This document shows positions 948 through 32,943 of a stretch of 32,943 nt of DNA, one piece after another. The DNA is taken from IMG/VR virus record IMGVR_UViG_3300002220_000147, one strand, 5' to 3'. Every line of letters starts with the position of its first letter. Position 1 is the first letter of the stretch. Origin of the DNA: an uncultured virus (IMG/VR IMGVR_UViG_3300002220_000147) (taxonomy: Duplodnaviria > Heunggongvirae > Uroviricota > Caudoviricetes > Crassvirales). Below the pieces are notes generated by a model. That model was not told where the DNA came from, did not search any database, and worked only from the letters and a program-made list of their open reading frames with translations. The translations under genes were made by a program, and so were the position numbers.

Positions 948-1430
948 ATGAAGAAGAAAATTAAGTTTTTAGTAATACATTGTACTGCTACTCCTGAGGG
1001 TAGAGAAGTTACAATACAAGATATTAAAAAGTGGCATCTATCTCCACCACCTGTTGGAAGAGGGTGGAAGCAGGTTGGTTATACAGATTTATTTCATTTA
1101 GATGGAAGTATTACAAGACTTGCTAAAAATAATGAAGATGCTTATGTGGATTCTTGGGAAATTACAAATGGAGTAGCTGGTATAAATTCAGTCAGCAGAC
1201 ATATTGTATATGCAGGAGGATTAGATAAAAAAACTAAAAAACCTAAAGATACAAGAACTGATGAACAAATGGAGTCTTTAGCTCAATATATTATATATTT
1301 TATACAAGATAATCCTGATGTATTAATCGCAGGACATTACCATTTTGCAAATAAAGCCTGCCCTTGTTTTGATGTTCCTGAATGGTTAGAATCAATTGGT
1401 GTTCCAAATCGTAATATTCTAAAGAAATGA
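948..1430 (+). CDS. N-acetylmuramoyl-L-alanine amidase (Amidase_2 / T7 lysozyme-like endolysin)
   Basis: Motifs VIHCTAT, GW..VGY, GH and KACPCF match the Zn-amidase ligand pattern (H, Y, H, C). Confidence 0.92.
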   Translation: MKKKIKFLVIHCTATPEGREVTIQDIKKWHLSPPPVGRGWKQVGYTDLFHLDGSITRLAKNNEDAYVDSWEITNGVAGINSVSRHIVYAGGLDKKTKKPKDTRTDEQMESLAQYIIYFIQDNPDVLIAGHYHFANKACPCFDVPEWLESIGVPNRNILKK

Positions 1431-1951
1431 AAAAAATAATTATATTTATAGGTTTATTGACTATGTTATCTTCTTGTGTAACACAAAAAGCCTGTAATAA
1501 AAAGTACCCACCTGAAGTAATAACAGAAATAGCTGAAAAGATTATTATCAGAGATTCAATAGTAGAAAAAATAATAAATGTTCCTGTATATATAAAGGGA
1601 GATACTATTAATAATTATGATACTGTTGTATTAAACAAATATACTGGATTAATTAATTCTAAACCTGTATACGCAGAAACTGAGTTTTCTAAAGCTGAAG
1701 CACAGGTTATTAATAGTAGACTTAGTTTAGAACTTATCCAAAAGGATACATTGTTTTCAGTACAGGCAATAGCGAAAGAAGCTTATTATTGGAGAGAAAA
1801 ATATAGAGAAGAACTAACTAAAACAGTTAAAGAGGTAAGATATATACCTAATTTTTATCATGTAATGGGGATAATAGGAGTTATCAGTTCTGTTTTATTC
1901 TTGGTATGGCTCATATTTAAACTATTTAAGAAACCAAAATTATTCTTATGA
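1427..1951 (+). CDS. lipoprotein with C-terminal TM helix, putative unimolecular spanin
   Basis: Signal peptide with lipobox LSS-C17; C-terminal hydrophobic helix (VMGIIGVISSVLFLVWLIF) and Lys-rich tail; ATGA overlap with the amidase gene. Confidence 0.65.
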   Translation: MKKIIIFIGLLTMLSSCVTQKACNKKYPPEVITEIAEKIIIRDSIVEKIINVPVYIKGDTINNYDTVVLNKYTGLINSKPVYAETEFSKAEAQVINSRLSLELIQKDTLFSVQAIAKEAYYWREKYREELTKTVKEVRYIPNFYHVMGIIGVISSVLFLVWLIFKLFKKPKLFL

Positions 1952-18600: not shown

Positions 18601-21600
18601 TAGAAAGATTTATTGAAGGTACTCATACTGGAACACCAGTTGGAACGCTTTCAGATGTGTTAAAAGATACTACTGAAGCATTAGCTCCTACTAAAACTGA
18701 ATCTGTAGATACAACAATGCCAGCATCAGGAAATCTAAGTGATTTTCTTGGTACTAAGGATGAAGTAGTTACAGGTAATGAGGTAAGTGATGAAGAAGCT
18801 ACTAGATTAGTTGCTTTATCTAATACTACTGATATACAGTTTGAAAATATACCGCAAGTAAGGGAATGGTTTAGGAAAAACCTGCCTAATATTCCTTTGG
18901 AAGTAGTGGACAAGATAATTGCTACTGCTAAAGGGGGTGCATGGGGTACATTTACAGGCAAAGCTGTTAGGTTATACAATCTTGCTGAAATAGGTACAGC
19001 ATTCCATGAAGCATTTCATGCAGTCTATAGAATAGGACTTACTAGATCTCAACAAAGAATGCTTATCAATACCATAAGAAAAGAAAAAGGTAAGGATATT
19101 TCTATTAGTGATATAGAAGAACTTCTTGCTGAAGACTTCAGAAATTGGATGTTAACAGGTAAATCTGAGTATTCAACTCCATCACCTGTTAAAAGAACTA
19201 TATTCCAAGCTATTCAAGATTTTATTGATAGTATTATAGATTTGTTTACAGGAGTCAAAGGATTTAGAAATACTATAGAACTATATCAAAATATAAATAG
19301 TGGTGCATATTCTCATATCAGAGCTAAAACTGAGGAACTATCTAAAGATAATTGGAAATTGAGACAAATTACAGGCTTAGATGTTACTGAAACTGAAGAC
19401 CTTATTACAGGACTTAGTGTAAGGGTAATGAGTAATCTATATTCAAAGTATAATTCTGATTTTACAGAATTTTTAAAGAATATAGGTGGATTGATAGTGC
19501 AGGAATTACAAGACTATAAAAATAGTGAATGGATACCTGAGGGTAAGAAGAAAAGAATTGAAGGTGTCCTTACCAACAATCTAGCTGAAGTTATAACTAG
19601 TATTAAAGACCATTTTAATTACATAGGTTTATCCATTGATATGGAATTAGGGGATGATGCTAATTCTCTTATAGAATCCGTAAATGATGGGGAGGCTATA
19701 GCTAATAGGGGACAGGAATACAACGATAGTATCGAAGTGTCTAATATAAGAAATATGGCTAATGAGATTAAACTTCTTATTCATACCTTATATGAAAGAG
19801 TTCCTGTTAGAGAAGGAGTATCAGCAGAAAAACTTAATAGCGTAGGACTTCCTACAATTGTTAATTTTGCCAGTACATATAATACATTACTTGAAACTTT
19901 AAATGGCACTACTAATTGGGATGGTGCTAACGGTATAATGACTAAACTTAAAAAGTTAGCTACAGAAAAACCTGAAATTACCCTTCTTATTAATAGATTA
20001 AATAAACTTACTGGCGATAGGGGTGTTGTAGTTAAAAATAAATTTAGGCAAGCCTTTTCCATCAATAGATATGGATATAAAACCTATGTTATTGGAGAAG
20101 AAGGTGGGAAGTTTATTAATTCAAGTACTTCAAGGAATATTGACAGGTTGCGTGAGCAGTTAGATAGTGAGTATAAAAACTCAAGTCTCTATAAAGAAGC
20201 TCTGCATGAAGACGCTGCTAAAGTTAATAGGAAGATACTCTCTGAAATTACTGAGTTGAAAAAGATGGATAAAAACAGTCCTGCCTTTAAAACAAGGTTT
20301 AGTAATCTTATGAGGGGACTTGGGTTTGATAATATATTAGACCTTAATTCATTAATTAATAATCCTATATTATCAGACGAAGTACTTATAACTTTATCTG
20401 AAGAAAATACCTTTGCATCTACTAATTTAGTTTCAGATTTAACAGTTCTGAAATCAGGTAGATTTAAGAAAGTACTTATGAACGAAGCTCTTAATAGAAA
20501 GAACTATTTTGAGCCTCAACACGCTAATCCTAAGAATAAGATTGTACATGAATATTCTCTTAATAATTACTATTCTTCAATAGTAAATGTATTGAATAAT
20601 GCTATGAATCTACCTACAGCAGAAGATAGGATTGCTGATGTATATAATAGGTTACCTCAGATGAGAAATCTTGAGGGTAAATCTATATGGTGGACTACTG
20701 TATTGAATGGATTAACGGATGGTAGCTTAGACCTTAGTATTACATTTCTTGAAGGTATGCGTGAGAATATTAGTGGTGCTGAAGGTAAAGTTACTTATGA
20801 CTTATCTCAGACAGACCTTGCTAAAATGCATATTGAAGGTATGTTAATTGCTGGATTACACACATTCCGTAGACCTTCAGATAAATCTCTTGAACCTGCT
20901 ATCGAAGGATTTGGGTTAGAGATTAAACCTGATAATACCAGACTTAAGCAGATACTCATTGGTTATATAAAGCATGACCTTAAAACAACTAATAATAAAG
21001 GTCTGCAAATGCTTGAATCAATATTTTCACCTCAACTTGTTGCAGATATTATAGCAAACCAAGGTAAACTTGAACTTATTAGTGATAAAATTTTAACAGA
21101 ATTTAAGAAATATTTAAGTGATGAGGCTACAAGTATAGAAAAATTACTTACTGAATTAAAACTTATTCATTCTAAAGGTAATCTCTTTTCTGAAGAACTT
21201 ACTAAGGTATATAAAAATACTTCTGATATTATAGATGCATTCGTATTAAACTACTTTATTAGTAGGATTGAGCAACATATGATGTTTCTTGGGGATTTTA
21301 CTCAGTTTACACAGCTATTTAAGAGGACTTCAGGGCCAACAGGTACAGGTAAAACCTTTAGCCAAGATGCTCATACAGTTGAAATGATTCAAAAGGGGTA
21401 TATTGCTCAACTTAGTAAGATGCCGTTAGAAAGCAGATATAATAGACTAGACCTTATACTCCAGCTTACAGTACCGCAAAGAGAGGCTTTGGGAATTACC
21501 GATGAGATGGTTCTTAATCTTCCTGTAACTATAAACTCTACTAATATTAGTATTCTTAAAGAAAGAACTGAGAAGATTACTGAACGTCAGAGAGAATGGT

Positions 21601-24600
21601 ATGAGAAACTTATCAGAGAAGATGCTGCTAATTCAGGATTATCTGAAGGACAGATAAGTATTCTTGTAGACCAGTATATGCAACCATACTATAATATGGA
21701 TATTGCAGACGGTTTAGGTATGATGTCATTTGATAGATACAGGCATTTCCTTATGGCTACAGGTGATTGGAATATGGATACTCAAGAGCCTGTATATCAG
21801 AAGATTATTAATGGTGAGCCATTAACAATTAAAGATGTTGCTGTATTTCCACCAATTAAACCACAGGGATTTGGCCCTAAAGCCTTTAAAATTCTGTTTG
21901 GTGAAAATGGCCCTGTAGAACAGGATATGTCAGATGAAAACTTTAAGTTAGCGTTTGAGAAATTATCTATTATACCACTAATCCCTACTACAACTCAAGG
22001 AAAACAGATAGGTGTACTAAGTGAATCAATGCAAATGTCAGGTGTTGATATAGCAATATATCAAACAGGCTTAAAAGACAATACTTCTAATGAAGAAGAC
22101 ATTGTTGATTTTAAAGGAGAGCCTATGTATATGAACAGTTTCAATCAGAATCTTAAATACTGGAAGATTCAATTGGATATTCATCCTGAGATTGAAGAGT
22201 CTGATACGGATGGTACTCAACAAAGAGTTGGTATATTTACTGACTTGTTTAGTGGTGGACAACCTGTTGATTTTGAAGGTGAGGAGAATTGGAATGAATT
22301 ATCTTTATCTGAAAAGGAAGAGTCCTCCCCATTATATAAACTTTATAATGAGTATTCAAATATCTATGAGGGCATTATAACTGATTCCAAAGAGAAGTTT
22401 CTAAAGGAGTCGGGAATAGTTTTATCTGAAGATGGTGAGTATATTATAAAAGACTATGAGAAATTCTCTAAAGTAATCAGGAAAGAGATTAGTAGTAGGA
22501 GATTACCTTCCAATATACTTAAAGCAGTTGTTGTTGATAAAGAAACAGGTAAGCTTAAATTTCCTATTGATGCACTACCTATAGCAGATAAGATTGAGAA
22601 TATGTTATTTGCTAAGGCAATGAACAATACTGTCAGAATTAAAAGAGCGGGTGCTTCTTATATCCAAACTTCTAATGCTTTATGGACAGATGCTAATACT
22701 GCAGAAGCTACTAAATTTGCCAAAAAACTTAACTTTATAAGGGAAGAGAATGGTAAGATTGTAGGGGCAGAAGTATATCTACCTAATTATATGAGAGATA
22801 TAATAGGTGATATTAATGATGCAGACTTAGATAAATTAATGAAAGAAAAGCCTGAATTATTCAGGTTAATGGGTTATAGGATTCCTACTCAGGGGCAGAA
22901 CTCTATGCTACCTTTGGTAGTTAAGGGCTTCTTACCTGCTGAAATGGGGGATACTGTAATTGTACCTTATGAGATTGTTGCTCAGTCAGGTGCTGACTTT
23001 GACATTGATAAATTACATATATTCAGACCTAACTTTATAAATCTTGATGGTAAGGTTACTTATGTAAATGATAGTATTACTGAAGATGATATTAAGAAGG
23101 ATATAGAGGTAATTAATAAACTTCTACCTACTTTGACAGCTATGCCGGGAGAGAAAATTTCTTCTGTAATAGAAGCTAATGCTGTATTGTCAATGATGGG
23201 TATTACTACTGAAGAGTTAATTAATGAGAAGGAAGAAATTGGTAGCCTTCTTAGGGGTAGATTATCCTTGATGAAGAAACAAAACAGACTTCTTGAAATT
23301 CAATTAGAACTTCTGTCACATCCTGCTGCTACAAGGAACTTGATTGTACCTAACGGTGCTGAATTTCTTAAAGAAGAAGCTGCATTTACTGAGTATCTTA
23401 AGGAATTAGGGAGAGCTGGTGCTATAGTTGATATTAGTAAAGTAACCAAAGAATCCTCTGACTTTAAGAATTGGTTACCTGTTTATACTAAGGAACAAAA
23501 TACTACTAAGCAGAGGAATCTTCTTAGTTACAGATTTGAACTTGAGACTGGTATGGCTTTTAAAGGAGGTAAAAAAGGGGTAGCAATTGCAGCCACTTAT
23601 GCTAAATTCCATAATCTTAGCCAGCAATCAGGGTTAACTCTGTCAGGAGTAATCAAGACCAAGACAACTCATATTGATGGTAAGAATGGCCCCGCAACAG
23701 CATATTCTGATAAGGGTACTCCCGTAGTACTTAAGTTTGAACATAACACTGTAGATAAGGAAGGTATTACTTTAGTTGCTCTTGGTAAGAAATTTGCCAA
23801 AGGTGGTAGACTTATATCTGAGCAATTTAATGAGCATTTAACTGCTAATGTGGATATTGCTAAAGACCCCTTTATCTTTAAACTCAACACCAATGGTATT
23901 ACTTCAAATGTAAAATACTTTATGATAGCAGTTGGAGCTAATCCTGAATTTGCTAATAGATTCTTAACTCAACCTATTATAGAGGAGTATATTGAAGAAA
24001 GGTTAAAGAATGAGTCAGTATCAGTAAATGCTACAAGAACTAATAAGGAGGAATCAGTATATGAGGGAGAGGATGCTATTCTAGAGAAATTGTACAGAAA
24101 GTATGGTGGTAAATCTTCTGATAATGTAGGTAAGGTGCTTGAGGATATTCATGGAAGGTCTGAAGGTAACATTACTATTCAGCAACTTAATGAAGGTATT
24201 CTTAAAGGTGCTTCAACTACCCAAGAAGACTCAGATAAAACATTTCAACTCAAAGTACTTGCTGACTTTAAAGCCTATTTAGAGTATGGTAAAGCATTCT
24301 CTGATGGGGTACAATCAGTTAAATCTGATACCAAGAGGCTCAAGAACCATTCTGAAACTGTTACATTATTAGATAACATTGAAGAGGTAGAAAAGGTTGG
24401 GTTATTCTCCGATATAAAAAAGGCTCTTAGTAGGGGCATCTTAAAAGGATTTACTAATGCTCACGCATCTTTTGTAAAGAACCTTTACAAACAGGTATTT
24501 TTAACTCAATCGAATGGTATTCAGGAGAAGATTTATAAAGCAATCAAAACTGATATTTCTATTGGTAGAGCCCAACTATCTGAGAAAGAGGTAGATAAGA

Positions 24601-25664
24601 TTAGACAATCTATTATGACCTACTTATTACAGGTAGCCGTTAGTAAAGCATTATATGGCACAAAAGGAGTTCCATTTACTTATGATATAGTAAAAGAGAA
24701 TCTTGTAGGTGAACAGAGTGTTCCTAGAATTACTCATAATTTCTCTAAAAGAAAGAATACTATTATAACTATATTTAGAGATTTCTTATATACAAGAGCT
24801 GGGGATACTGCTGAAAATGTAGATACTATTAAAGTGAATGGTAAGAAATTAGACCCTTCTACTGCTGACTTAATTGCTGACCAATTCTCTCAGGTTAATG
24901 AGGGGGATAGTGCAGTGTTTAATCAGTTATTGACTGTAACTGCAATGCAGACTGGTACAATGTATTCTCCAATCAACTTCCTGAAACATATGGATTCAGA
25001 AGCTGTTGGTAAAATACTTGCCCCAATCATTAAACAAGCATTAGAAAATCCTGTAGTGAATACATTTAATCTAAGTTCAGATACTTATGAAAACTTCTTA
25101 GATAATTTCTATAGAGCTAATCGTAAGAATACTAATCTTGTGCCTAGATTAAGAGGTATGAGACACGCTAAACTTAGTAGTGATGGTAATGTCCTCACCA
25201 TAGGTAAAGATAGTATGTATTATGGTAGAAGAATGCTTAGAAGAGTTGAAAAGTCTAAGGATAGTAAGGGTAATGTTAAATTTATTGATATACTTTACAA
25301 GTATGAGGGGTTTGCTGGAGAAGAGGCTATTTATGTTAAGACTAATGTAAAGAGTACATTCTTCCTTCAGGAATATCATAACGGTAGTCAATCAGTGGAT
25401 ATAACCAACATAGATAAGGCTAACTTCATATCAGATACTGATAGAAAGAATTTAGTAGATGCTTTTGTAAAGAAGGGGATGTCAGTTCCTGTATATGATG
25501 AAATTGTTCAACTAAAAGAAGCTGCTGCTGAACCTATAGCTGAGGAAACTTCATCTTATTATGGTAGAACAGAATCAGGCATTTCCGTAGAAAGTTTAAT
25601 ATCTGAAAAGGAATGGAAATCAATGAGTGAAGATGAGCAGAATAATTTTATCAAATGTAACTAA
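12636..25664 (+). CDS. giant virion polyprotein: membrane-active N-terminus, coiled coil, zincin protease domain, virion DNA-dependent RNA polymerase (phi14:2 gp66-like)
   Basis: GYRIPTQG...GADFDIDKL catalytic motif (DFDID at 22995-23009), upstream ADG and PIKP motifs; HEAFH (19005-19019) with downstream EELLAE; N-terminal hydrophobic helices and an EGIYEEGLQ motif. Confidence 0.9.
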   Translation: MSNIDLSQIIQNSTNELDPVTQQPTKGKSRYVPLNINARDYEFNKFPTENVGNYTQGERSSYDENLTPTQLRGLVNAPENSEAFLEDFRSQEQASLPAFGNASAKLLAKTGINVLGGLAGTVYGVGSAIAEGNITKLYDNAIINELDGWSKNLDKAMPVYKSSNYESDNLLENIVKNPIMFADVASDAISFTAGIMLTAYAAGAIAAPFKVANAVNKVSKFNKGARFLEEGVAGVESIDKASKTLLGANKIDDVLGNVRRIITGSAYEASVGANNTAQNMRAKAIPILDKELSDKYNLLAQEAIARHPNAAENPAIQSMIDAELKYIKSAYDSERSKRLLELEYNVQRAGMGDYVTNLAILGTSNAFQFSSTFGMRWSGARKTLSSGAAKFSKEVAEETGEKLLKATATNVPTTKVGKILSTAKTIVEKPFVEGIYEEGLQGASSTAMSDYYLRKYDSKNFGEARTYLESAYRALMQTYDPSNTQSWKEIGMGMIIGGLGAPGKGLMPGHLGINSDTQKREPLWTGGIKGSFDERKSRRDNVGRILSKYKDIGENTTIGMKAGYNNVVADMEAVRNQEESIKNNDKKAFLDNQDDRFFGFVKARESAGVGSTIDDEIDSMKEMTPKGFIETYSGDQSDLLSMTAKQQEEYKNSTIEALEKRLSAIRESMSLVNSIEPSDPINNYIPEIEDIKEQFAYLHSKGAFIDLRQDQLKNLLDTMTTGVIDGRTALQLEKDMALLGVDRNVVENLVSKRDKISKLEESLAVKEDELSSIRNTTNDRLKVQKQQKDKLDDELTSLRNELQQEKTKLTKFISKKGRSNREAVGGLTTPQARAEVKAAEKLDHDVVVEYGKKIEKLEKDIANREKAASTFNKSITKIQKKLDELDIEGKTTIEKIKSELDSYKKSYREELDKRHTISKEAANRRNVDFTFDNYNAYATEIIKVMEADEVFQKNAQKYYSTNPLEQDKIKEALIDMGRLENSRQEAIELLNFLKTKSGRDIAVTKLKRAMYKNYEKDFAINEEVKEEITELLKDPRYLTTGIPYSYLLNGKEVIGKIINHIESGTPLFVPNDKKDTVYEDKDKDGKVIESYTLISLQQILTLAKATNPEITENKVLDDAIFATKQEDAKLKKVGSINTDSGTFTLPGDVMEDSEGNEYFVVTKYTKEGAPYFVYYDINENGSIGPRTIPEQDQPDYKTLKLVSSEDKVFDGDLVDYEDSKGNKEIGILAYESPFLFEGEANDQSTYPKKLTFKPVAGTTSIVIEDRDTIKTLVDQAIEAKSSKETVVDSKTKNPIINYKGQDGSIEYRIKQAKKISKWRKSKTGKRYNKPYTLYFLPGENKFTTIELSPVAGKTLAEVEELARNGNLTSEDLTGLTGSREKVSNYDITDIEVLQDDFVSKSGERYVIFKKGDAIFAAKKIAKFYKIFTESNQVSNYGRNGEVNFAKITYYVDNSSEKELGETYDDTIKLSAQNPHLMFVAGREVEFTEVKLPSGNIFYENKRNPDGSLVVHANKSQQNWYNFLKTKFEGDPEKLKEFMDNHVLKVVVNNSEATAKYFEEDDAPKTGINSDGTISLPMSKEVYLKVVIVDKNTLEPITDENGNELFNSIHSPNFTNFDSTSPEAKAFYIEELNKLRALIIAKINENAEHSPTLLLPIVDVTTGRAVYEESVVTERGKERTRFNVKGRLVSENADSVSIPWDVITSQKDATDEAIGATVIINGKEYRFSKKSRSVGQIISAIVGANGKAIPVTLLTRNVNSEEATTIAALLKMVANGTNEFDGIPIIPESSQSVKDAQFYLKKFVKYGKNSGKNVDTQLYWDAKTKSIVIGKDSISLEEVNSEEGFNKLVSKLKERKILHVSKSFKGKPFNVSYTDKDGKVVKSLSFGHYNNYLFGDKDSKGNSTLRPVLQTDLAKQVDGVNPVVQVGMEYGDLHTSITDAPIFTKKTYAGAETKRTPSKKVDNTKDGVAGLDAGAPADLAAKFLEIQDELERFIEGTHTGTPVGTLSDVLKDTTEALAPTKTESVDTTMPASGNLSDFLGTKDEVVTGNEVSDEEATRLVALSNTTDIQFENIPQVREWFRKNLPNIPLEVVDKIIATAKGGAWGTFTGKAVRLYNLAEIGTAFHEAFHAVYRIGLTRSQQRMLINTIRKEKGKDISISDIEELLAEDFRNWMLTGKSEYSTPSPVKRTIFQAIQDFIDSIIDLFTGVKGFRNTIELYQNINSGAYSHIRAKTEELSKDNWKLRQITGLDVTETEDLITGLSVRVMSNLYSKYNSDFTEFLKNIGGLIVQELQDYKNSEWIPEGKKKRIEGVLTNNLAEVITSIKDHFNYIGLSIDMELGDDANSLIESVNDGEAIANRGQEYNDSIEVSNIRNMANEIKLLIHTLYERVPVREGVSAEKLNSVGLPTIVNFASTYNTLLETLNGTTNWDGANGIMTKLKKLATEKPEITLLINRLNKLTGDRGVVVKNKFRQAFSINRYGYKTYVIGEEGGKFINSSTSRNIDRLREQLDSEYKNSSLYKEALHEDAAKVNRKILSEITELKKMDKNSPAFKTRFSNLMRGLGFDNILDLNSLINNPILSDEVLITLSEENTFASTNLVSDLTVLKSGRFKKVLMNEALNRKNYFEPQHANPKNKIVHEYSLNNYYSSIVNVLNNAMNLPTAEDRIADVYNRLPQMRNLEGKSIWWTTVLNGLTDGSLDLSITFLEGMRENISGAEGKVTYDLSQTDLAKMHIEGMLIAGLHTFRRPSDKSLEPAIEGFGLEIKPDNTRLKQILIGYIKHDLKTTNNKGLQMLESIFSPQLVADIIANQGKLELISDKILTEFKKYLSDEATSIEKLLTELKLIHSKGNLFSEELTKVYKNTSDIIDAFVLNYFISRIEQHMMFLGDFTQFTQLFKRTSGPTGTGKTFSQDAHTVEMIQKGYIAQLSKMPLESRYNRLDLILQLTVPQREALGITDEMVLNLPVTINSTNISILKERTEKITERQREWYEKLIREDAANSGLSEGQISILVDQYMQPYYNMDIADGLGMMSFDRYRHFLMATGDWNMDTQEPVYQKIINGEPLTIKDVAVFPPIKPQGFGPKAFKILFGENGPVEQDMSDENFKLAFEKLSIIPLIPTTTQGKQIGVLSESMQMSGVDIAIYQTGLKDNTSNEEDIVDFKGEPMYMNSFNQNLKYWKIQLDIHPEIEESDTDGTQQRVGIFTDLFSGGQPVDFEGEENWNELSLSEKEESSPLYKLYNEYSNIYEGIITDSKEKFLKESGIVLSEDGEYIIKDYEKFSKVIRKEISSRRLPSNILKAVVVDKETGKLKFPIDALPIADKIENMLFAKAMNNTVRIKRAGASYIQTSNALWTDANTAEATKFAKKLNFIREENGKIVGAEVYLPNYMRDIIGDINDADLDKLMKEKPELFRLMGYRIPTQGQNSMLPLVVKGFLPAEMGDTVIVPYEIVAQSGADFDIDKLHIFRPNFINLDGKVTYVNDSITEDDIKKDIEVINKLLPTLTAMPGEKISSVIEANAVLSMMGITTEELINEKEEIGSLLRGRLSLMKKQNRLLEIQLELLSHPAATRNLIVPNGAEFLKEEAAFTEYLKELGRAGAIVDISKVTKESSDFKNWLPVYTKEQNTTKQRNLLSYRFELETGMAFKGGKKGVAIAATYAKFHNLSQQSGLTLSGVIKTKTTHIDGKNGPATAYSDKGTPVVLKFEHNTVDKEGITLVALGKKFAKGGRLISEQFNEHLTANVDIAKDPFIFKLNTNGITSNVKYFMIAVGANPEFANRFLTQPIIEEYIEERLKNESVSVNATRTNKEESVYEGEDAILEKLYRKYGGKSSDNVGKVLEDIHGRSEGNITIQQLNEGILKGASTTQEDSDKTFQLKVLADFKAYLEYGKAFSDGVQSVKSDTKRLKNHSETVTLLDNIEEVEKVGLFSDIKKALSRGILKGFTNAHASFVKNLYKQVFLTQSNGIQEKIYKAIKTDISIGRAQLSEKEVDKIRQSIMTYLLQVAVSKALYGTKGVPFTYDIVKENLVGEQSVPRITHNFSKRKNTIITIFRDFLYTRAGDTAENVDTIKVNGKKLDPSTADLIADQFSQVNEGDSAVFNQLLTVTAMQTGTMYSPINFLKHMDSEAVGKILAPIIKQALENPVVNTFNLSSDTYENFLDNFYRANRKNTNLVPRLRGMRHAKLSSDGNVLTIGKDSMYYGRRMLRRVEKSKDSKGNVKFIDILYKYEGFAGEEAIYVKTNVKSTFFLQEYHNGSQSVDITNIDKANFISDTDRKNLVDAFVKKGMSVPVYDEIVQLKEAAAEPIAEETSSYYGRTESGISVESLISEKEWKSMSEDEQNNFIKCN

Positions 25665-25669
25665 GTATT

Positions 25670-28600
25670 ATGGCAAATTGTGTAAATAAATCATTACCGG
25701 AATTTAAAAATTTAGCTGCTGAATCTGGTATTAATCCTTTAGTATTAGCAGTTAAAATAGGAGTATGGCAAGAAAGTAATGGGCTAGATAACTGGCCCAC
25801 TCTTGCTGATTTAGGTGTTGGTAATAAAGAAGAAATAACTCAAGACTCTAATAGTTTTTATAGAGGACAAATAGAACAACCTACTATAGATAAAAATGGT
25901 AACCTTATCTTACATGGTAAAAAAGATTCTTTATATACTAAAGCAGGATTAAAAGATACTGGTGTATCAATGACAGATGATTTACAATCCGCTATAGAGT
26001 ACGGTAATGGGCAATTAGAAGTAACTAAAAATTTAGCATCTGAAACTTATGATGCAGAGCAAGAATTAGAAACTCTTAGTCAAAATGGGTATTGGTTAAT
26101 TCAAATACCTAAGAACATTTCTAATGAAGTAGTTAAAGAGGCTGGAGAAGTTAAAGTTATAGGTGATAAAATTATAGTACCTAAAGGTAAATACAAAGTA
26201 GAACAAGTATCTGATTTTTTACAAAAGGGTAATTCTACAACAGAAGCACCAATTAAAGAATTAGAATCTAAACTAATGTCTTTTCTTAATAAGATTGGTG
26301 TTAAAGTAGAAACTTTAGGAGAAGGTGATTTTGTTGCTAAGGCTAAGTTACTTGAGAAGATAATTCAAGTGGTACAAGGTAAGGCTGATATTACCACCTT
26401 ACCTGAAGAGGCTAGTCACATTTTTGTAGCAATTCTTAAGGCTAATGGTGTAGTATATCAGAAACTTGTTGCTGATATTGAATCTAACCCAATCTATAAT
26501 GATGTATTTGAAGAGTATAAGAATATTTATGTACTACCTAATGGTAATCCTGATATAGATAGAATTAAAGAAGAAGCTGTGGGTAAACTTATAGCCAAAA
26601 ATATCGTGTCCTTATACAAATCAGGATTGGTAGCCAATGAAGGTAAACCTAAATCTTGGTTAGAGAAAGGCTGGGATATGATTAAAGCTGTAATTAAAAG
26701 GGGACTTAACTCTATTGGTATAACTAATTTTTCTCCTATGATAGCTTCTGTTGAAGGTAAAACTGTTGATATTTATCAGCAGACAGCTTCACGTATTCTT
26801 AAGGGAGATTTAAAGGGGTTGAACTTATCTTTACCTTTGGATAACTATGAGATGTTACAGAAAACTAACGCTAGTCAATCTGATGTAGTTAATTCAATTA
26901 GAGCAATTCAAAATAGGATTGAAGTTGGTTCTGAAAAATTAGATAGTGGAGAAAATAGACACTTCTATTTTATTGATAAGGCTACTGATAGGGAGCGTAA
27001 AGTTTATGGAACTCCTTCAATGATAGCTAGTCAAGATAGTAGGAAAAGAAGTAAATATTCTCGTAAGTTTATCTCCCAAGATACTCTTACTGCGTGGGAT
27101 AAAGCTGCTAAGAGAGGTACTACTGTTCATGGGTGGGTGCAGGATATTGTTGAAAACTATGTTAGTTCTAATAAGGTTATATCTACAGCTACTTATAAGA
27201 AATTATCCCCAAAAGAAAGAGTGCTTTATGATGGAGTAAGGGCTAAAGTAGAAGCTCTTATTGATTCCATTAAAAGAGAAGACCCTACTGCTATATTTAT
27301 GCCAGAGATGGCTATCTATGACCCAACATACAAATGGACAGATGATTATGGCAAGTCTCAAACAGGTATTGCCGGGTCTATAGACCTGCTTGTTGTTCAC
27401 GGTGATGGTACTGTAAGTATTTATGACTGGAAAACTACTTCTAAGGGTAAAGGATTGGATGCTATAAGTATATGGAAAGCCTTTGAATATAATACTCAGG
27501 TATCTCTGTATAAGAGAATGCTTATGGATGGTAATTCTTATATGGGTGTTCCTAAAGTAAAGGGTATTAGAAAAAGTAGACTAGTACAAATTAGTACAGA
27601 ATCTGATGCTGAGGGTAAACTTAGTAAAGTAGAACTTATAGGTGAAATTCCTGTTGCAGGTGAATCTACTGGTAATACTAAACTTGATTCTAAATTAGAG
27701 GGTTTATATAATAAGTTTTATAAATTACTTAAAGCAAAACCACCTAAAGATGCTGCTGAAAGGAAGGCTTATTATGCTAGGATAGATTCAATAAAAGATA
27801 CTATTATAAACCTACACCTTAGAAAGGGGTACGCCACTATCATTGATAATGCCACTATTGACCTTGAGTATGTAAATAAAATTCTTAACAAAGAGGATGT
27901 TTCCATAGAAGACTTAACTACCGCTAAAGAAGTAACTAATTTGTATGGAGATATTATGGAATTTATAGATGACTCTGGGCTTACTAAGGAGAATGAGGCT
28001 GCATTAGCTTTTATTCAAAGAAAATCTATTAAAGCAGCCAAAACCATTAATGAAAAGATAATGCTTATACAGCAGGCTGAAGCAAGTAACTATGGAATAT
28101 CTGTTCCATTAGATGCTATAAGCAGGCAAGTAGGATTTTTAGAAAAGAATTTTAGGTCTATTAGTACTGTTAATCACCCAATGATTGCTTATCTATATGA
28201 AAAAGTTAAAAGGGCTTTATATGTATCTGAACAAGAGAATAATACTTTACGTGCAGAAATTATACAGCAACGTGAGGAGGTAAAAAAATGGGCAAGCTCT
28301 CATGGATTATCTTTGCAGGAAGCTATTGATAAAATCATTAATAAAAAGACAGGTAATTTAATTGGAGTAGTTAAGGCTGATTATTTTACTAAACAAAGAG
28401 AGGCTAGAGCAGCTAAGAATTTGGCTTGGTTTAAAGAGAATGTTACCTTAGATGTAGATTTATATAATAAAGAATTAAAAGCCTTTGCTGATGGATTAAA
28501 TTCAGGTAAACCTCTTAGTAGAAATCCTGCTAAGAATAAAGAAATGCAGGAACAACTAGTTGCTGAATTTAAAGCTCTTGAAAGTAACCTTATGGAGTCC

Positions 28601-30646
28601 CATTACACCAAGATTCGTACAGATAAGGAGAGTGAATGGTTCTCAGATGAGTGGAAAGAATTAAATAAGTCTGATAATAAAGCACTTAAAGATTTTTATG
28701 ATTTCTTTATTAAGACTACTAGCCGAATGGCTAAGACTCTTCCACATTTTAATCACAAATATACCTTCATTCCTTCTGTTAGGAAAACTTTGATGGAGCA
28801 ATTAGGTAATGTAGCTGATGGTAAGGGGTTGTTTGAAAATGTAAGGTCTAGAATGTCAGTGAATGAATTAAATGCTAATTCAGGTGCAGTCAATGAAATG
28901 ACTGGTGAAACAGGTGGAGAAGTTCCTTTATACTTTGTAGAAGGGATTAAACCAGAGGATAAGTCTTACGATTTATTTAGAGTGCTACAAATATTTGGAG
29001 AAATGGCAAATAATTATAAGAATATGTCGGAGATAGAAAATTCTACTCTTGCAGCATTTGAAATTCTTAAAGGACAAGAAGCCTATTCATCATCAGCATT
29101 TAATCCTCTTGGAATTAAGATAAGTCCTATGACTCAAAATCCACAGAAAAGTACTCAGGCTAATGAGGGTTGGGTGGAAATGTATGAAGACTTTATGAAT
29201 TATTTTGTATACGGAGTTAGTACTAAAAATCCTTCCAAAATAACTGAAATGTTGGATTCTTTGAATAAGTTTACATCATTTAACTTATTAGGGCTAGCCC
29301 CATTTCCAGCTATGGCAGCATTAGTTGCTAATGCAAGTAATACTCAAATTCAGATAGCAAGAAATATCTATTTTAATGAGAGACAGTTTGCTAAGTCTTT
29401 ATGGATGTTAACTGGTGGTAAAGCTATTGGTGGTAATGAGAAGGAAATAGCTTTTGGATTACTACAATTATTAACACCTACTATTGACATTAGAGCTGAA
29501 GCTAAGAATAGAAAACTATCTACTAAGATACAAGTTAGAAAGGTAACAGTAGACCATTTTTATTTTATGCTTAGGGAAACTGACCAATTTAATCAAAGTG
29601 CTGTAGCATTATCAATGTTGCAAAACGCTACTGTTACTAAAGATGGTAGAATTAGGTTACTATCTGACTATGCTAAGGATTTAAGACCTCCACATTATTA
29701 TGATAAAGATACTAATAGGAAGAAGATTGATGAGGAAATTGCAGAAAAGATGAAATCAGTTAAGTCTATAATGGATTTAACTTCTGTAGATGATAAAGGC
29801 ACACTTAGGATTGAGGGTATTCCTGAGTTGAGTATGGAAACTATTATGGAATTTAGACAAATGATAAGACAAGTTAATAAAAATATTATTGGTAATATGG
29901 ATGCTAATGATATATTTACTGCTAAAGTAAATGCTTGGGTTAGACCTCTCCTATTGTTTAGAAACTGGATGCCTAGAATGATTGAGGAAAGGTTTGGAGA
30001 ACTCAGATATAACAGAGAGTTGCAAAGAGCTGAGTTTGGTAGGTACAAAACTTTCTTTAAACACCTTACTACAGTAGCTAAGGATGAAAACAATAGACTT
30101 AAGTGGAGTATGGCTATTGGAATAGTTGAAGCAGCTAAAATAGAATATCTTAAACAAGTTGCATTAAACCCTAATATAGTAAATGATATTTCAGAAATGG
30201 AGTTTATTGATCTGTATAAAGAAAATATGAGAGCTTCTTATGTTGGACTTGCAATTACAGCGGCAGTACTTATGTTTATATTTGCTTCTATAAGAGCATT
30301 TGATGATGATGACGATGAGAATTTAACTTCATCACAAAAACTTCAACTTAAGCTTTTAAGAAGAGCTTATTCTGAAATGTCAATGTTTGCTAATCCTGTA
30401 GAAGCTATCAATATTCTTAAATCTCCTACAGCATCTCTAGCACCACTAGTTACACTAGGTAGGGCACTTAATCATTCGGCTAAACAGTTTACAGGTTGGG
30501 TATTAAATGATGAAGAAATGCAGTTTAAAGCAAGACCTGTTAAGTTTTGGATGAATTTTAGTCCATTAGCGGGCCCTGAAAAATTCTACAGGTTATTAGA
30601 TGACCAGTGGAAAGAGAGAATTGAAGATAATAAGAAAAGTGAGTAG
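25670..30646 (+). CDS. large virion polyvalent protein: ART-like, degenerate zincin-like and PD-(D/E)XK nuclease domains, helical C-terminal region with hydrophobic segments
   Basis: FYRG / GVSMT / EAGEV; LPEEASH...EEAVG; RGTTVH...GSIDLL...IYDWKT...QVSLY; C-terminal hydrophobic helix YVGLAITAAVLMFIFASI. Confidence 0.75.
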   Translation: MANCVNKSLPEFKNLAAESGINPLVLAVKIGVWQESNGLDNWPTLADLGVGNKEEITQDSNSFYRGQIEQPTIDKNGNLILHGKKDSLYTKAGLKDTGVSMTDDLQSAIEYGNGQLEVTKNLASETYDAEQELETLSQNGYWLIQIPKNISNEVVKEAGEVKVIGDKIIVPKGKYKVEQVSDFLQKGNSTTEAPIKELESKLMSFLNKIGVKVETLGEGDFVAKAKLLEKIIQVVQGKADITTLPEEASHIFVAILKANGVVYQKLVADIESNPIYNDVFEEYKNIYVLPNGNPDIDRIKEEAVGKLIAKNIVSLYKSGLVANEGKPKSWLEKGWDMIKAVIKRGLNSIGITNFSPMIASVEGKTVDIYQQTASRILKGDLKGLNLSLPLDNYEMLQKTNASQSDVVNSIRAIQNRIEVGSEKLDSGENRHFYFIDKATDRERKVYGTPSMIASQDSRKRSKYSRKFISQDTLTAWDKAAKRGTTVHGWVQDIVENYVSSNKVISTATYKKLSPKERVLYDGVRAKVEALIDSIKREDPTAIFMPEMAIYDPTYKWTDDYGKSQTGIAGSIDLLVVHGDGTVSIYDWKTTSKGKGLDAISIWKAFEYNTQVSLYKRMLMDGNSYMGVPKVKGIRKSRLVQISTESDAEGKLSKVELIGEIPVAGESTGNTKLDSKLEGLYNKFYKLLKAKPPKDAAERKAYYARIDSIKDTIINLHLRKGYATIIDNATIDLEYVNKILNKEDVSIEDLTTAKEVTNLYGDIMEFIDDSGLTKENEAALAFIQRKSIKAAKTINEKIMLIQQAEASNYGISVPLDAISRQVGFLEKNFRSISTVNHPMIAYLYEKVKRALYVSEQENNTLRAEIIQQREEVKKWASSHGLSLQEAIDKIINKKTGNLIGVVKADYFTKQREARAAKNLAWFKENVTLDVDLYNKELKAFADGLNSGKPLSRNPAKNKEMQEQLVAEFKALESNLMESHYTKIRTDKESEWFSDEWKELNKSDNKALKDFYDFFIKTTSRMAKTLPHFNHKYTFIPSVRKTLMEQLGNVADGKGLFENVRSRMSVNELNANSGAVNEMTGETGGEVPLYFVEGIKPEDKSYDLFRVLQIFGEMANNYKNMSEIENSTLAAFEILKGQEAYSSSAFNPLGIKISPMTQNPQKSTQANEGWVEMYEDFMNYFVYGVSTKNPSKITEMLDSLNKFTSFNLLGLAPFPAMAALVANASNTQIQIARNIYFNERQFAKSLWMLTGGKAIGGNEKEIAFGLLQLLTPTIDIRAEAKNRKLSTKIQVRKVTVDHFYFMLRETDQFNQSAVALSMLQNATVTKDGRIRLLSDYAKDLRPPHYYDKDTNRKKIDEEIAEKMKSVKSIMDLTSVDDKGTLRIEGIPELSMETIMEFRQMIRQVNKNIIGNMDANDIFTAKVNAWVRPLLLFRNWMPRMIEERFGELRYNRELQRAEFGRYKTFFKHLTTVAKDENNRLKWSMAIGIVEAAKIEYLKQVALNPNIVNDISEMEFIDLYKENMRASYVGLAITAAVLMFIFASIRAFDDDDDENLTSSQKLQLKLLRRAYSEMSMFANPVEAINILKSPTASLAPLVTLGRALNHSAKQFTGWVLNDEEMQFKARPVKFWMNFSPLAGPEKFYRLLDDQWKERIEDNKKSE

Positions 30647-30938: not shown

Positions 30939-31214
30939 TCATTCTTCACTCCTTTCTACATAAGGGGAAGTATCTAAATAAATAAAAGCCCATTCTCTTT
31001 CAATTAATTTCTTATTAAGCTTAGTTACCTTATGAATGTAATCTTTAGCCCAAGCAACCCACTCATCATTTTGAGCTTGAGTTACAGGGAATAGTCTGTA
31101 CCAATTTGGTGATTTAATTTCTTCAGGGTATTTTTCTGCAACTTCTTTACAATTAGTATTATGGTATTTTGATAACCACCAATCCATTAAGTCTGTTCTA
31201 CTAACCTGTTTCAT
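30939..31214 (-). CDS. hypothetical phage protein (Trp-rich)
   Basis: 91 aa; ATGA overlap with the upstream gene. Confidence 0.7.
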   Translation of the reverse strand: MKQVSRTDLMDWWLSKYHNTNCKEVAEKYPEEIKSPNWYRLFPVTQAQNDEWVAWAKDYIHKVTKLNKKLIEREWAFIYLDTSPYVERSEE

Positions 31215-31612
31215 TTTAAAATATCCTCCTTAGTATATAAACAAGGTCTAAGAACCGCCAAGTGGTCTTTTATTCCTGCTTTATCCATTAAATAACTAAA
31301 TGTATGATTTATAATTAGTTTACCATCAACAATATTAAATCCGTAGATAAATCCTAACTTATCGTAGTCTGGCATTTTTATATACATTCCTGTATTAAAA
31401 AATACTCCGTCTACTATTCTGGTTACTGCTGTCACTACATCTCCTTTATAATGAGGAATATATGGAGTAACTTCTATAATCTCTTCCCAATCGTAAGATT
31501 TCTCTACAAAAAGAGATGGTATAGAATGGTATTCATTTGTATAAAATTTACAACCTAAGTCGTGCCTCTCTTGTACAATGTCTCCTGTAATCCTATGTTT
31601 ATATTTTTTCAT
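31211..31612 (-). CDS. hypothetical phage protein
   Basis: The MKKYKH start at 31612 is preferred over 31645 because it gives only a short overlap with the upstream 56-aa ORF. Confidence 0.65.
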   Translation of the reverse strand: MKKYKHRITGDIVQERHDLGCKFYTNEYHSIPSLFVEKSYDWEEIIEVTPYIPHYKGDVVTAVTRIVDGVFFNTGMYIKMPDYDKLGFIYGFNIVDGKLIINHTFSYLMDKAGIKDHLAVLRPCLYTKEDILK

Positions 31613-31769
31613 AGTTTTTAATTTTTTCGTTAAATTGCTTCTCATTCAAATGAGTTGTGTATGGGAATTCTTCTCCGGCTAAATTTTTAATTCTTAAATA
31701 AGTTATAGCAAAATAATAAGGAGATTCTTTACACTTCTCAATCTCGTTAAGTATATCCTTTTCTTCCAT
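31599..31769 (-). CDS. 56-aa protein (absent from ORF track) resembling the N-terminal helix motif of T4-type large terminases
   Basis: Manual translation MEEKDILNEIEKCKESPYYFAITYLRIKNLAGEEFPYTTHLNEKQFNEKIKNYEKI*; fills the gap between its neighbours, starting 2 nt after the upstream stop. Confidence 0.65.
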   Translation of the reverse strand: MEEKDILNEIEKCKESPYYFAITYLRIKNLAGEEFPYTTHLNEKQFNEKIKNYEKI

Positions 31770-31771
31770 AA

Positions 31772-31996
31772 TTAATCAGGTTTATAAGGTGTTGGTAATT
31801 TCATATACGCTACAATGTTACCTTCAACATTAGCATAATCATCTGATTTATCGTAAAGACATAGTTTTACAGTATCATCATTAAGTGTGACTAACCATAA
31901 TCCACTTTCAATAGGTTTACCTACTCTCCAACATAAAGCCCTCTCCCCATTATCATGTTGAGGAGAGAACTTAGTACTAAATGATATATTATTCAT
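31772..31996 (-). CDS. DUF551-like small phage protein
   Basis: Pattern W....P...G.WLVT...IVAYMKLPTPY resembles DUF551. Confidence 0.6.
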   Translation of the reverse strand: MNNISFSTKFSPQHDNGERALCWRVGKPIESGLWLVTLNDDTVKLCLYDKSDDYANVEGNIVAYMKLPTPYKPD

Positions 31997-32591
31997 TTTA
32001 TTAAATTTTTAATAACCATTACTTTTAATTGCTGATAAGATACAGGTGTGTAATTCCAAGCATCCACGCCTATATCATATCTCATAAAATGATATGGAGC
32101 TATTTCACTGGCTGTATAGTTTGGGCCACTATGAATATGTCCATGTAAATGAATATATCCCCTTCTCCAATATAAAAATGGATAATGGGTTATAATAAAA
32201 TTCATATGCTTACTCTCCAATTCATCATCAATAATTGTGAATTGATACATATCAGAAGTTTGATGAAACATATCTTTGATTATCTGTCTATCAAGTCTAT
32301 TCCGGTAATCATGATTTCCAAGAATTAAATATATTTTACCATTTAACCTTTCAACTAATTCTCTAATATAGTCTATCCTTGCAGTCATAACAAAGTCTCC
32401 AGCATGGAATACAATTCCATCCTTAGGAACTACACTGTTCCAGTTGTCAATCAAAGCCTCATTCATATGAAACTCATCTTGGAAAGGTCTGTTACAAAAC
32501 TCTATAATATTTTTATGGTAAAAATGAGTCAAGTATCCGAGGTAAAGAATATCTTCTCTGCCTCGGACATATTAAAATTAGGTATTTTCAT
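31993..32591 (-). CDS. calcineurin-like metallophosphoesterase interrupted by a 5-nt gap (candidate programmed bypass, otherwise pseudogene)
   Basis: The first frame (ATG 32591) encodes MKIPNFNMSEAEKIFFTSDT then TGA. The second frame resumes at HFYHKNII and contains HAGDF, LGNHD, THYP and HGHIH. Skipping 5 nt restores TSDTHF and gives 197 aa. Confidence 0.85.
32534..32569 (-). other. mRNA stem-loop directly 5' of the interruption
   Basis: UGUCCGAGGCAGAGAA-GAUA-UUCUUUACCUCGGAUA: 15 of 16 positions pair (two G-U, one C-A mismatch). Confidence 0.75.
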
Positions 32592-32643
32592 TTGTGTTAT
32601 TTTTTAAGTATTATGAATGCTGGTTCGTTATGGTTAGCCACGA

Positions 32644-32839
32644 GTTAGGCACAATAAAACTATCGTGCTTTCCAAAGGTCTTCCATTACATCAGAACCTT
32701 TATCACCGTAATCGCTTCTCCAAGTTATTAATGCTAATAAAAAGTAAAGCACTCCTATTATCATTGCTATTGGTGTGCATAAACACTTGATTAAAGTTGT
32801 CATTAATGGTATCATAATTTAAAATTTACTGTGCCTAAC
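32644..32839. repeat. 15-bp inverted repeat pair bounding the 51-aa ORF
   Basis: GTTAGGCACAATAAA (32644-32658) versus TTTACTGTGCCTAAC (32825-32839): 14 of 15 complementary; the ends fit GTTRRRY and RYYYAAC. Confidence 0.8.
32660..32815 (-). CDS. 51-aa membrane peptide carried in a cassette-like unit (absent from ORF track)
   Basis: Manual translation MIPLMTTLIKCLCTPIAMIIGVLYFLLALITWRSDYGDKGSDVMEDLWKAR*; fills the space between the flanking inverted repeats. Confidence 0.65.
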   Translation of the reverse strand: MIPLMTTLIKCLCTPIAMIIGVLYFLLALITWRSDYGDKGSDVMEDLWKAR

Positions 32840-32925
32840 AAGCAATATAAAACAGTTGCCGTCAAGCTATTACTAAATTTGAAACGTCTTACAAGGCAAC
32901 CGTTTCATATTGCCGACCGTTACCA
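32833..32925 (+). mobile_element. attC-like integron cassette recombination site
   Basis: Starts GCCTAAC and ends GTTACCA, 93 bp; internal arms GCAATATAAAACAGTTGCC (32842-32860) / GGCAACCGTTTCATATTGC (32895-32913) match at 17 of 19. No integrase in the window. Confidence 0.65.
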
Positions 32926-32943
32926 ACCATTTAAGGAAGGTAA

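Follow-up and report, generated by a model that had tools for sequence, protein, structure and literature searches.

To our knowledge, only a handful of systems make use of translational bypassing, namely T4 gene 60 with its homologues and the byps of yeast mitochondria. Byps are mitochondrial, GC-rich, 27–55 nucleotides (nt) long and numerous per genome. The present analysis concerns a hairpin in the DNA of an uncultured virus of the Crassvirales (IMG/VR record IMGVR_UViG_3300002220_000147; the whole stretch of 32,943 nt is called the window in the following), which lies on the minus strand near the start of a phage metallophosphoesterase gene and ends on the first base of the codon preceding a 5-nt coding gap. 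Judging from the sequence, it is likely that a programmed short bypass ("stop-hop") takes place in the metallophosphoesterase messenger RNA (mRNA) and that this hairpin acts as its 5′ stimulatory element. The recurrence of the hairpin together with the break in many related phage genes suggests hairpin-aided hopping of ribosomes over the break; the arrangement would then be a small-scale counterpart of T4 gene 60 with a link to an endonuclease.

The 5′ stem-loop of gene 60 is regarded as an "initiating driver" (bioRxiv 10.1101/2024.12.09.627546). In T4 a single mobile cassette comprises both the 50-nt bypass and the gene of the HNH endonuclease MobA; the insert guards against self-nicking, and some genomes retain the bypass after loss of the endonuclease (bioRxiv 10.1101/2022.08.31.505936). 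The locus in the window resembles gene 60 in that a stop comes immediately after the take-off codon and the landing codon would be read by the same peptidyl-tRNA, and in that a 5′ stem-loop (here of −19.5 kcal/mol) lies upstream of take-off. Among the gap loci as a group, 8 of 25 also have a free-standing homing endonuclease directly upstream, and the cassette probably outlasts its loss. It differs in the length of the gap, which is 5–9 nt rather than 50 nt (20 nt in one clade) and leaves no room for the A-site/take-off stem-loop, the Shine-Dalgarno (SD)-like GAG before the landing codon or the 3′ barrier of gene 60, and in the stem, which reaches the first base of the take-off codon, whereas that of gene 60 ends 9 nt 5′ of it. 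The first open reading frame (ORF1), with only about 20 codons, is too short for a nascent-peptide signal of the gene 60 type; the tRNA is specific for Thr (Ser in locus L106) rather than Gly, the endonuclease is of the LAGLIDADG rather than the HNH type, the host gene codes for a metallophosphoesterase rather than a topoisomerase, and no sequence homology to the gene 60 system is evident. Because there is no gap stem-loop, no 50-nt gap and no room for a nascent-peptide signal, and because endonuclease and host gene are different, the locus is by its defining elements not a member of the gene 60 family. By analogy, it would work like gene 60, and like a natural stop-hop of the synthetic type combined with an upstream duplex of the type found for release factor 2 (RF2).

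In synthetic constructs, hops occur where a stop is flanked by matched codons, and natural in-frame stop-hopping is described as not known in a review of 2016 (PMC5009743). In E. coli, the synthetic stop-hops and the +5/+6 hops (Weiss et al., 1987, via PMC5009743) are like the present arrangement in that matched codons flank the stop and the peptidyl-tRNA re-pairs, or here would re-pair, at the downstream copy. Those relatives of the window gene that have a 6-nt gap correspond exactly to the "9 nt specifying one amino acid" of the synthetic hops. These were, however, engineered, whereas the arrangement described here is natural, conserved and equipped with a dedicated 5′ hairpin. The stop-hops of 1987 reportedly were of low efficiency and had no dedicated stimulator.

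For the +1 shift at CUU-UGA it was found in a 70S system that an upstream refolding hairpin or SD:anti-SD duplex juxtaposed to the E site is stimulatory (PMC6321510). The prfB (RF2) site and its mimics, in which a cis hairpin replaces the SD:anti-SD duplex, share with the locus a shift codon in the P site, a stop in the A site and an upstream duplex that adjoins the E site or reaches into it and is found, or here proposed, to promote movement in the forward direction (PMC6321510). Unlike in prfB, the displacement would be +5, +6 or +9 onto a non-overlapping codon rather than +1, the duplex is intramolecular and natural, and no autoregulatory logic is known. The byps of Magnusiomyces mitochondria are alike in that ribosomes skip short blocks inserted into coding sequence (PMC5009743), and unlike in that the gaps here measure 5–9 nt, with the structure placed 5′ of them rather than inside. 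In the literature covered, which does not extend to subscription journals, no description of a hairpin/micro-gap cassette was found.

The hairpin and its association with the gap

The gap interrupts motif I of what is, by homology, a calcineurin-like metallophosphoesterase. The downstream open reading frame (ORF2) matches PF00149 with E 3.4e-6 and 28.1 bits (cut-off 21.5), the match beginning only at profile position 30, matches the phosphoesterase family phrog_547 with E 3.6e-40 and has 1761 homologues at E ≤ 1e-10. Three uninterrupted homologues have TTY TTY ACN TCN GAY ACN CAY in the stretch coding for FFTSDTHF(G/Y)H, and the consensus of 59 relatives is KLFFTSDTHFxHKNIIEFCNRPF. The window has instead ACU-UGACU-CAU, with exactly 5 extra bases between the Thr and the His codon of the metal-binding D-x-H; the gap opens with a stop and closes with a second ACU. 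The D of motif I is encoded in ORF1 and the H in ORF2, which lies in the −1 frame relative to ORF1 and reads (L)THFYHKNIIEFCNRPF..., so that the motif is complete only after a hop (for coordinates see Table 1).

Positions 32569 to 32534 of the minus strand, whose sequence corresponds to the mRNA of the phosphoesterase gene, read UGUCCGAGGCAGAGAAGAUAUUCUUUACCUCGGAUA and fold as (((((((((.((((((....)))))).))))))))) with 15 pairs, one C·A mismatch and a GAUA loop (−19.5 kcal/mol), which is the 16-bp stem with 15 paired positions of the original prediction. The 3′ arm indeed ends, at 32534, on the A of the first ACU (32534–32532), a codon directly followed by UGA (32531–32529). Dinucleotide shuffles of the hairpin have a mean of −5.56 kcal/mol with a standard deviation of 2.35 (z −5.93; 0/200 equally stable), and the hairpin is still the main structure when folded in a context of 141 nt. 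A comparison with synonymous shuffles, which had been proposed at the outset, gave the same picture: when the hairpin peptide is recoded with the codon usage of the window, the mean is −5.96, the standard deviation 3.42 and z −4.04, none of 5000 recodings being as stable; with uniform choice among synonymous codons, 7 of 5000 were. The GC-rich codons TCC, ACC and TCG, to which attention had been drawn as unusual for an AT-rich genome, are rare in the five long open reading frames (ORFs) of the window (TCG 7/648 Ser, ACC 48/559 Thr, TCC 38/648 Ser). The covariance models of Rfam 15 gave no match at E ≤ 1 in 32300–32800.

Relatives with a gap were collected in several ways, and after removal of duplicates there are, with the window counted, 25 distinct gap genes. 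Protein-guided retrieval yielded one interrupted relative among 80 viral loci (L004, 59% identical) and one among the 80 metagenome loci listed (L106, 36% identical). A DNA pattern of the gap in which the Thr/Ser wobble positions and everything upstream were free gave 7 loci, 5 of them family members, and all 5 have the ACC UCG codons and the upstream complement. With only the 3′ arm and the stop fixed, 22 loci were found, 19 of them from the family and all 19 with the 5′ arm; with both arms and the stop, 41 loci and 24 family members. A search with the 3′ arm only gave 5 chance matches plus the already known L004, the hairpin-plus-stop pattern gave no family member among at least 120 loci listed from genome contigs, and a metagenome scan gave 6 close relatives among the matches listed, all of them gap-free or truncated.

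For each gene, the duplex energy of the 11-nt 3′ arm with the upstream 70 nt was computed and a threshold of −12 kcal/mol applied. Dropped before counting were L061, L063, L064, L073, L147 and L155, in which the match begins inside the protein, L089 and L094, which are cut by contig ends, and exact duplicates. All 25 gap genes fall at or below the threshold (−15.0 to −21.3 kcal/mol), as against none of 134 gap-free genes, the most negative of which has −10.1 kcal/mol; the question whether uninterrupted homologues carry the hairpin equally is thus answered in the negative. Even the 9 gap-free genes that have the codons ACC UCG GAY reach only −2.5 to −9.4 kcal/mol, and ACC-UCG is found in 2 of 126 distinct gap-free loci. 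The 18 loci with a 5-nt gap were all folded, and in each the closing pair of the lower stem includes either the first base of the take-off codon or the base preceding it; anchored pairing tables and duplex energies give the same closure for 25/25. When both arms directly followed by CAY without a gap were searched for in IMG/VR, 3 matches were obtained, none from the family. The 60 nt after the take-off codon are not more structured in gap genes (median −6.2 kcal/mol versus −8.55 in gap-free ones).

In a FastTree phylogeny of 159 rows the gap state requires at least 11 changes, gap genes standing beside gap-free sisters (L175/L001, L004/L005, L174/L074, L194/L222, L106/L016), and on supported branches the hairpin tracks the gap in 7 of 7 independent pairs (sign test, p 0.016). 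The gap-free L222 (IMGVR_UViG_3300009179_000175), sister of the gap-bearing L194, shows a partial CGAGG/CCUCG pairing of −9.4 kcal/mol, in which CGAGG occupies the position of the gene's own SD sequence; this pairing might represent an earlier stage or a remnant of the hairpin.

The gap measures 5 nt in 18 genes, 6 nt in frame in 5 (e.g., ACU UGA ACU CAU) and 9 nt in frame with two stops in 2 (e.g., ACG UAG UAA ACA CAU), the forms among relatives being TRACN, stop+ACN and stop+stop+ACN. A stop directly follows the take-off codon in every one of the 25 genes (first stop TAA in 14, TGA in 6, TAG in 5). In 10 genes, the window included (ACU/ACU), the take-off codon recurs as the triplet preceding the resume codon; in 13 this triplet is a synonymous ACN, and in 2 it is near-cognate (GCU, AUU). 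L106 uses Ser (UCC UAA UCC CAU). The landing triplets that do not code for Thr are GCU after ACG UAG in L183/L196 and AUU after ACC UAA in L194, and landing may therefore not need full cognate pairing. Removal of the gap yields D-T/S-H in 25/25, and ORF2 is complete in 25/25 with 173–220 codons. The most upstream in-frame ATG lies 18–32, mostly 19–24, codons before the take-off codon (ORF1 of the window has 20 codons), and no conserved ORF1 peptide was seen in these genes beyond the (W/F)FTSDT of the enzyme itself.

Between gap-bearing pairs, including the pair of window and L004, ORF2 is under purifying selection: the ratio of nonsynonymous to synonymous substitution rates (dN/dS) is 0.12–0.32, or synonymous sites are saturated with a proportion of nonsynonymous differences (pN) of 0.12–0.36. 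Because all 25 downstream ORFs are intact and under purifying selection, the gap is not the product of decay, as had been argued from the placement of the hairpin. Logan contigs of the likely source run match the window exactly, and relatives of about 83–85% identity from a second contig of the source run and from two other studies (groundwater, wastewater) have no indel at the gap. For the close homologues P0023, P0028, P0040 and P0055 the gene call begins with LTHFHH, as in P0023, or with an internal Met, at the position of the truncated call in the window, and these proteins probably mark additional gap-bearing genes.

Selection appears to act on the stem as RNA. The core UCCGRGG of the 5′ arm is read in frame 0, 1 and 2 in 4, 5 and 16 genes, where it codes for SEx, FRG/VRG, SPG/SPR or SGV, and the loop between the arms varies from 7 to 42 nt. 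In the alignment 94% of the cells are paired, as compared with 21–48% when the partners are slid by 1–3 columns. As to covariation, which had been put forward as a check, the score was reached by 0/500 shuffles, and to that extent the stem is supported; the double changes behind it are few (4 cells at three pairs), five short-loop rows being misaligned and scored as gaps. GAU is paired with UAUCC in L174 and L198 and GAC with xGUCC elsewhere, the window having a G·U. In L106 GUCCGCAGU/ACUGCGGAC replaces GUCCGAGGU/ACCUCGGAC, which amounts to two double compensations, and in a jumbo-phage clade (L170, L172, L189) the entire 60-nt interval forms an extended hairpin of 20 pairs with 2 compensatory pairs. 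The outermost pair is U-A in 14/25 genes. The cassettes of the window and L004 agree in 92.5% of their nucleotides (49/53), as compared with 66.5% for ORF2 (346/520) and 45% for the upstream DNA.

The proposed hop and its mechanism

Ribosomes would start at AUG 32591 and melt the hairpin while decoding codons 8–19, then pause while the P site has peptidyl-tRNA-Thr on ACU 32534–32532 and the A site is occupied by UGA. Behind the ribosome, the emerged 5′ arm and the loop would re-pair with the 3′ arm, which would occupy the exit channel, the E site (GAU) and the first base of the P site, and the GC-rich lower stem CCGAGG/CCUCGG would zipper, drawing the mRNA 5′-wards and displacing the E-site tRNA. 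The zippering would break the codon-anticodon pairing at take-off, and the mRNA would slide by 5 nt. The tRNA would then re-pair at ACU 32529–32527, and CAU would be decoded to give ...IFFTSDT-HFYHKNII... with D-x-H restored; the predicted junction peptide is ...IFFTSDTHFYHK... The geometry is such that with ACU in the P site the 3′ arm extends from −15 to +1, the stem takes in GAU of the E site together with the first base of the P site, and the A site is occupied by the stop. A hop of the peptidyl-tRNA is favoured because it is compatible with all three gap lengths (5, 6 and 9 nt), and the product predicted for each of them is collinear with the uninterrupted homologues, SDTHF being restored. 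We infer the occurrence of the hop, its efficiency and the role of refolding as the force behind it.

Several points weigh against such a role of the hairpin. Since most of the gap genes were retrieved by patterns holding one or both arms, the figure of 25/25 partly reflects ascertainment; only L004 and L106 come from protein homology alone, and 5 genes from the pattern without fixed arms. The co-occurrence is also probably in part linkage rather than 25 independent inventions, because hairpin and gap probably move together in an endonuclease-borne cassette. The uninterrupted P0005, which is 75% identical and shares the peptide MSEAEKIFFTSDT, may hold the hairpin without a gap. The arms are highly conserved as sequence, and true covariation is accordingly sparse (the 4 double-change cells). 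By a slide of 5 nt no more than roughly half of the lower stem can come to lie outside the ribosome, as estimated from general ribosome dimensions, and the energetic argument is qualitative. The nascent chain of about 20 residues at take-off leaves no room for a nascent-peptide signal of the gene 60 type, and short peptidyl-tRNAs may be prone to drop-off. Among the public runs listed there was no RNA run holding the stretch.

If hairpin-driven hopping is nevertheless what occurs, one may go further and think of a minimal portable bypass module, in which a GC-rich hairpin with a 3′ arm that passes through the E-site codon and ends on the first base of the P-site codon, a stop and a cognate landing codon would alone drive efficient hops of 5–9 nt, without nascent-peptide signal or gap structure. 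Homing endonucleases, here of the LAGLIDADG type, would generally use such micro-gaps to immunise the DNA of conserved catalytic motifs against being cut by themselves, and the cassette would recur in many phage gene families. This generalization is tentative, and we would put its chances at a little under even. At least 25 natural variants of one putative short hop, with three gap lengths, all three stops, cognate and near-cognate landings and loops of 7–42 nt, share a single conserved 5′ hairpin, and the family thus is a natural mutagenesis series. With it, the question whether pairing of the exiting mRNA drives forward movement of the ribosome becomes directly testable in a minimal context. 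There is a bearing also on the question by which routes other than introns or inteins homing endonucleases become established in essential motifs, and on annotation, such genes being presently called as truncated ORFs.

Endonuclease neighbours and other explanations

In 7 gap loci the ORF directly upstream on the same strand has Pfam LAGLIDADG domains, and with a profile made from these ORFs a LAGLIDADG ORF ending 44–73 nt before the take-off codon is found in 8 of the 25 gap loci, among them L004, the nearest gap-bearing relative of the window, as against 1 of 126 gap-free loci (L034). No endonuclease is present in the approximately 350 nt of upstream sequence that the window holds; it may have been lost from this locus. 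The remaining gap loci have unrelated upstream genes (methylase, PNKP, RNA ligase, dNMP kinase, SmpB). In origin, the gap is probably an insertion through which the conserved motif-I DNA gained immunity to the neighbouring LAGLIDADG homing endonuclease, and hairpin and gap would then probably travel jointly as a cassette. In the exceptional gap-free locus L034 (IMGVR_UViG_3300036764_000647, 347–971), which has the motif D-W-H, a LAGLIDADG-like ORF ends 26 nt before the motif (E 5.8e-48 to the profile); here an endonuclease occurs without a micro-gap, and its site may be protected by other means. In L180, on a 321-kb viral contig, the gene at 1312–1740 (minus strand), directly upstream of the gap-bearing phosphoesterase gene, codes for SmpB, the partner of transfer-messenger RNA (PF01668, E 3.7e-43), and a gene for a ribosome-rescue factor thus adjoins the putative programmed stall site.

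The endonuclease link allows for a different view of the hairpin, namely that the gap is hopped and the hairpin hitch-hikes with the cassette in the service of the endonuclease, as a 3′ stabiliser or processing site of its mRNA or as a translational throttle on the phosphoesterase ORF. The hairpin lies just 3′ of the LAGLIDADG ORF where there is one, the arms are nearly invariant, as would be the case for a recently spread cassette, and in the window the stem takes in U and G of the second AUG (32571–32569). However, the 17 gap loci without an adjacent endonuclease all have the stem (−15.0 to −21.3 kcal/mol) downstream of unrelated neighbours, and in L170 and L189, which are without endonuclease and have diverged at synonymous sites (dS 0.57), the arms are kept and the upper stem shows compensatory changes. 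Moreover, it is the 3′ end of the stem that is fixed, at the take-off codon in 25/25, whereas the 5′ arm wanders by 7–42 nt, and no terminator-like site (GC-rich stem with a U-run within 0–2 nt) was found in 31900–32943, the stem being followed by CUUGACUCAUUUUU. We therefore consider a service to the endonuclease unlikely.

It could also be thought that the inverted repeat acts as DNA rather than in mRNA, e.g., as a cruciform, a recombination site or in self-protection from the endonuclease, since the 3′ arm coincides with the motif-I DNA that is the expected target of a homing endonuclease and the arms are conserved as sequence. This is very improbable in view of the G·U pairs, which have no equivalent in DNA and are tolerated at pair 7 in 7/25 genes and at pair 2 in the window, and of the loops of up to 42 nt that are themselves folded, with compensatory changes in the sense strand. 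It should be added that the protection in T4 is, in the T4 literature covered, attributed to the inserted bypass sequence rather than to an inverted repeat.

Still less can be said for a restoration of the frame by −1/+2 frameshifting or by stop readthrough with the hairpin as frameshift modulator, although a 5-nt gap is equivalent to a −1 change of frame and the downstream ORF of the window can be read in the −1 frame from UUG 32532. A −1 shift would give SDT-L-T-HF, in which the D-x-H spacing is broken, as it would be by readthrough, and UAC offers tRNA-Thr no re-pairing. The 7 relatives with in-frame gaps of 6 or 9 nt, two of them with consecutive stops, need no frameshift and are not explicable by one, and the −1-frame codon at the gap is in most relatives UUA, which is neither a start nor a shifty codon. 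That the gene is a pseudogene or an assembly error with a hairpin by chance, for which one could cite the metagenomic origin of the window and the truncation by gene callers, is hardly credible against 25 distinct gap genes with intact ORF2s under purifying selection, the retention of the gap in independent contigs from three studies, the intactness of the other ORFs in the window, which are up to 4342 codons long, and hairpin z scores of −5.9 and −4.0.

Three further candidates were rejected. Termination and reinitiation at UUG 32532 would give a product lacking the motif-I Asp, and most relatives have UUA at this position. Reassignment of TGA is contradicted by the UAG that the zero frame meets eight codons later. 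An SD-like role of GAGG in the 5′ arm is not a conserved property, as the spacing between GAGG and the take-off codon is variable and CGCAG stands in its place in L106.

Features of the locus

The hairpin and the gap are situated in a block of small minus-strand genes at the edge of a phage structural region with 30–33% GC (Table 1).

Table 1. Positions in the window of the hairpin, the gap and the two reading frames.
Feature	Position	Strand	Basis and remarks
ORF1, MKIPNFNMSEAEKIFFTSDT*	32529..32591	−	Translation; AUG 32591–32589 to UGA 32531–32529; second in-frame AUG 32571–32569 partly in the stem
5′ arm, UGUCCGAGGCAGAGAA	32554..32569	−	Fold; codes for the non-conserved (M)SEAEK; core UCCGRGG kept in 24 relatives, in all three frames
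GAUA tetraloop	32550..32553	−	Fold
3′ arm, UUCUUUACCUCGGAUA	32534..32549	−	Takes in the codons F F T S D and base 1 of the take-off codon; same end position in 25/25 gap genes
Take-off codon ACU (Thr), x of motif I D-x-H	32532..32534	−	Uninterrupted homologues read SD-T-HF
5-nt coding gap UGACU	32527..32531	−	Comparison with uninterrupted homologues; stop UGA 32531–32529 overlaps landing ACU 32529–32527
ORF2, metallophosphoesterase body	31993..32526	−	Resume codon CAU 32526–32524; HFYHKNIIEF..., 177 codons and stop

Gene callers shorten the gene, P0002 beginning at an internal Met; the other ORFs of the window are without breaks. No tRNA genes are present in the window, blastn of the window end against phage records gave no match, and a single-protein locus search in viral contigs found nothing. 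The gap creates a −35-like TTGACT (32527–32532, minus strand), to which TATTAT (32504–32509, minus strand) lies 17 nt downstream, with 10/12 matches; since most relatives have TAACT there, this is probably a chance product of AT-rich DNA.

Beside the genes for virion structural proteins there are two unbroken ORFs of 4342 and 1658 codons on the plus strand (12636–25664 and 25670–30646), the second of which has an exonuclease-like stretch (phrog_298, E 3.2e-11). On the minus strand, two ORFs of 56 and 144 codons in 31211–31769 overlap by 47 nt in different frames, and the first of them matches, though weakly, a PHROG of terminase large subunits (E 2.3e-4).

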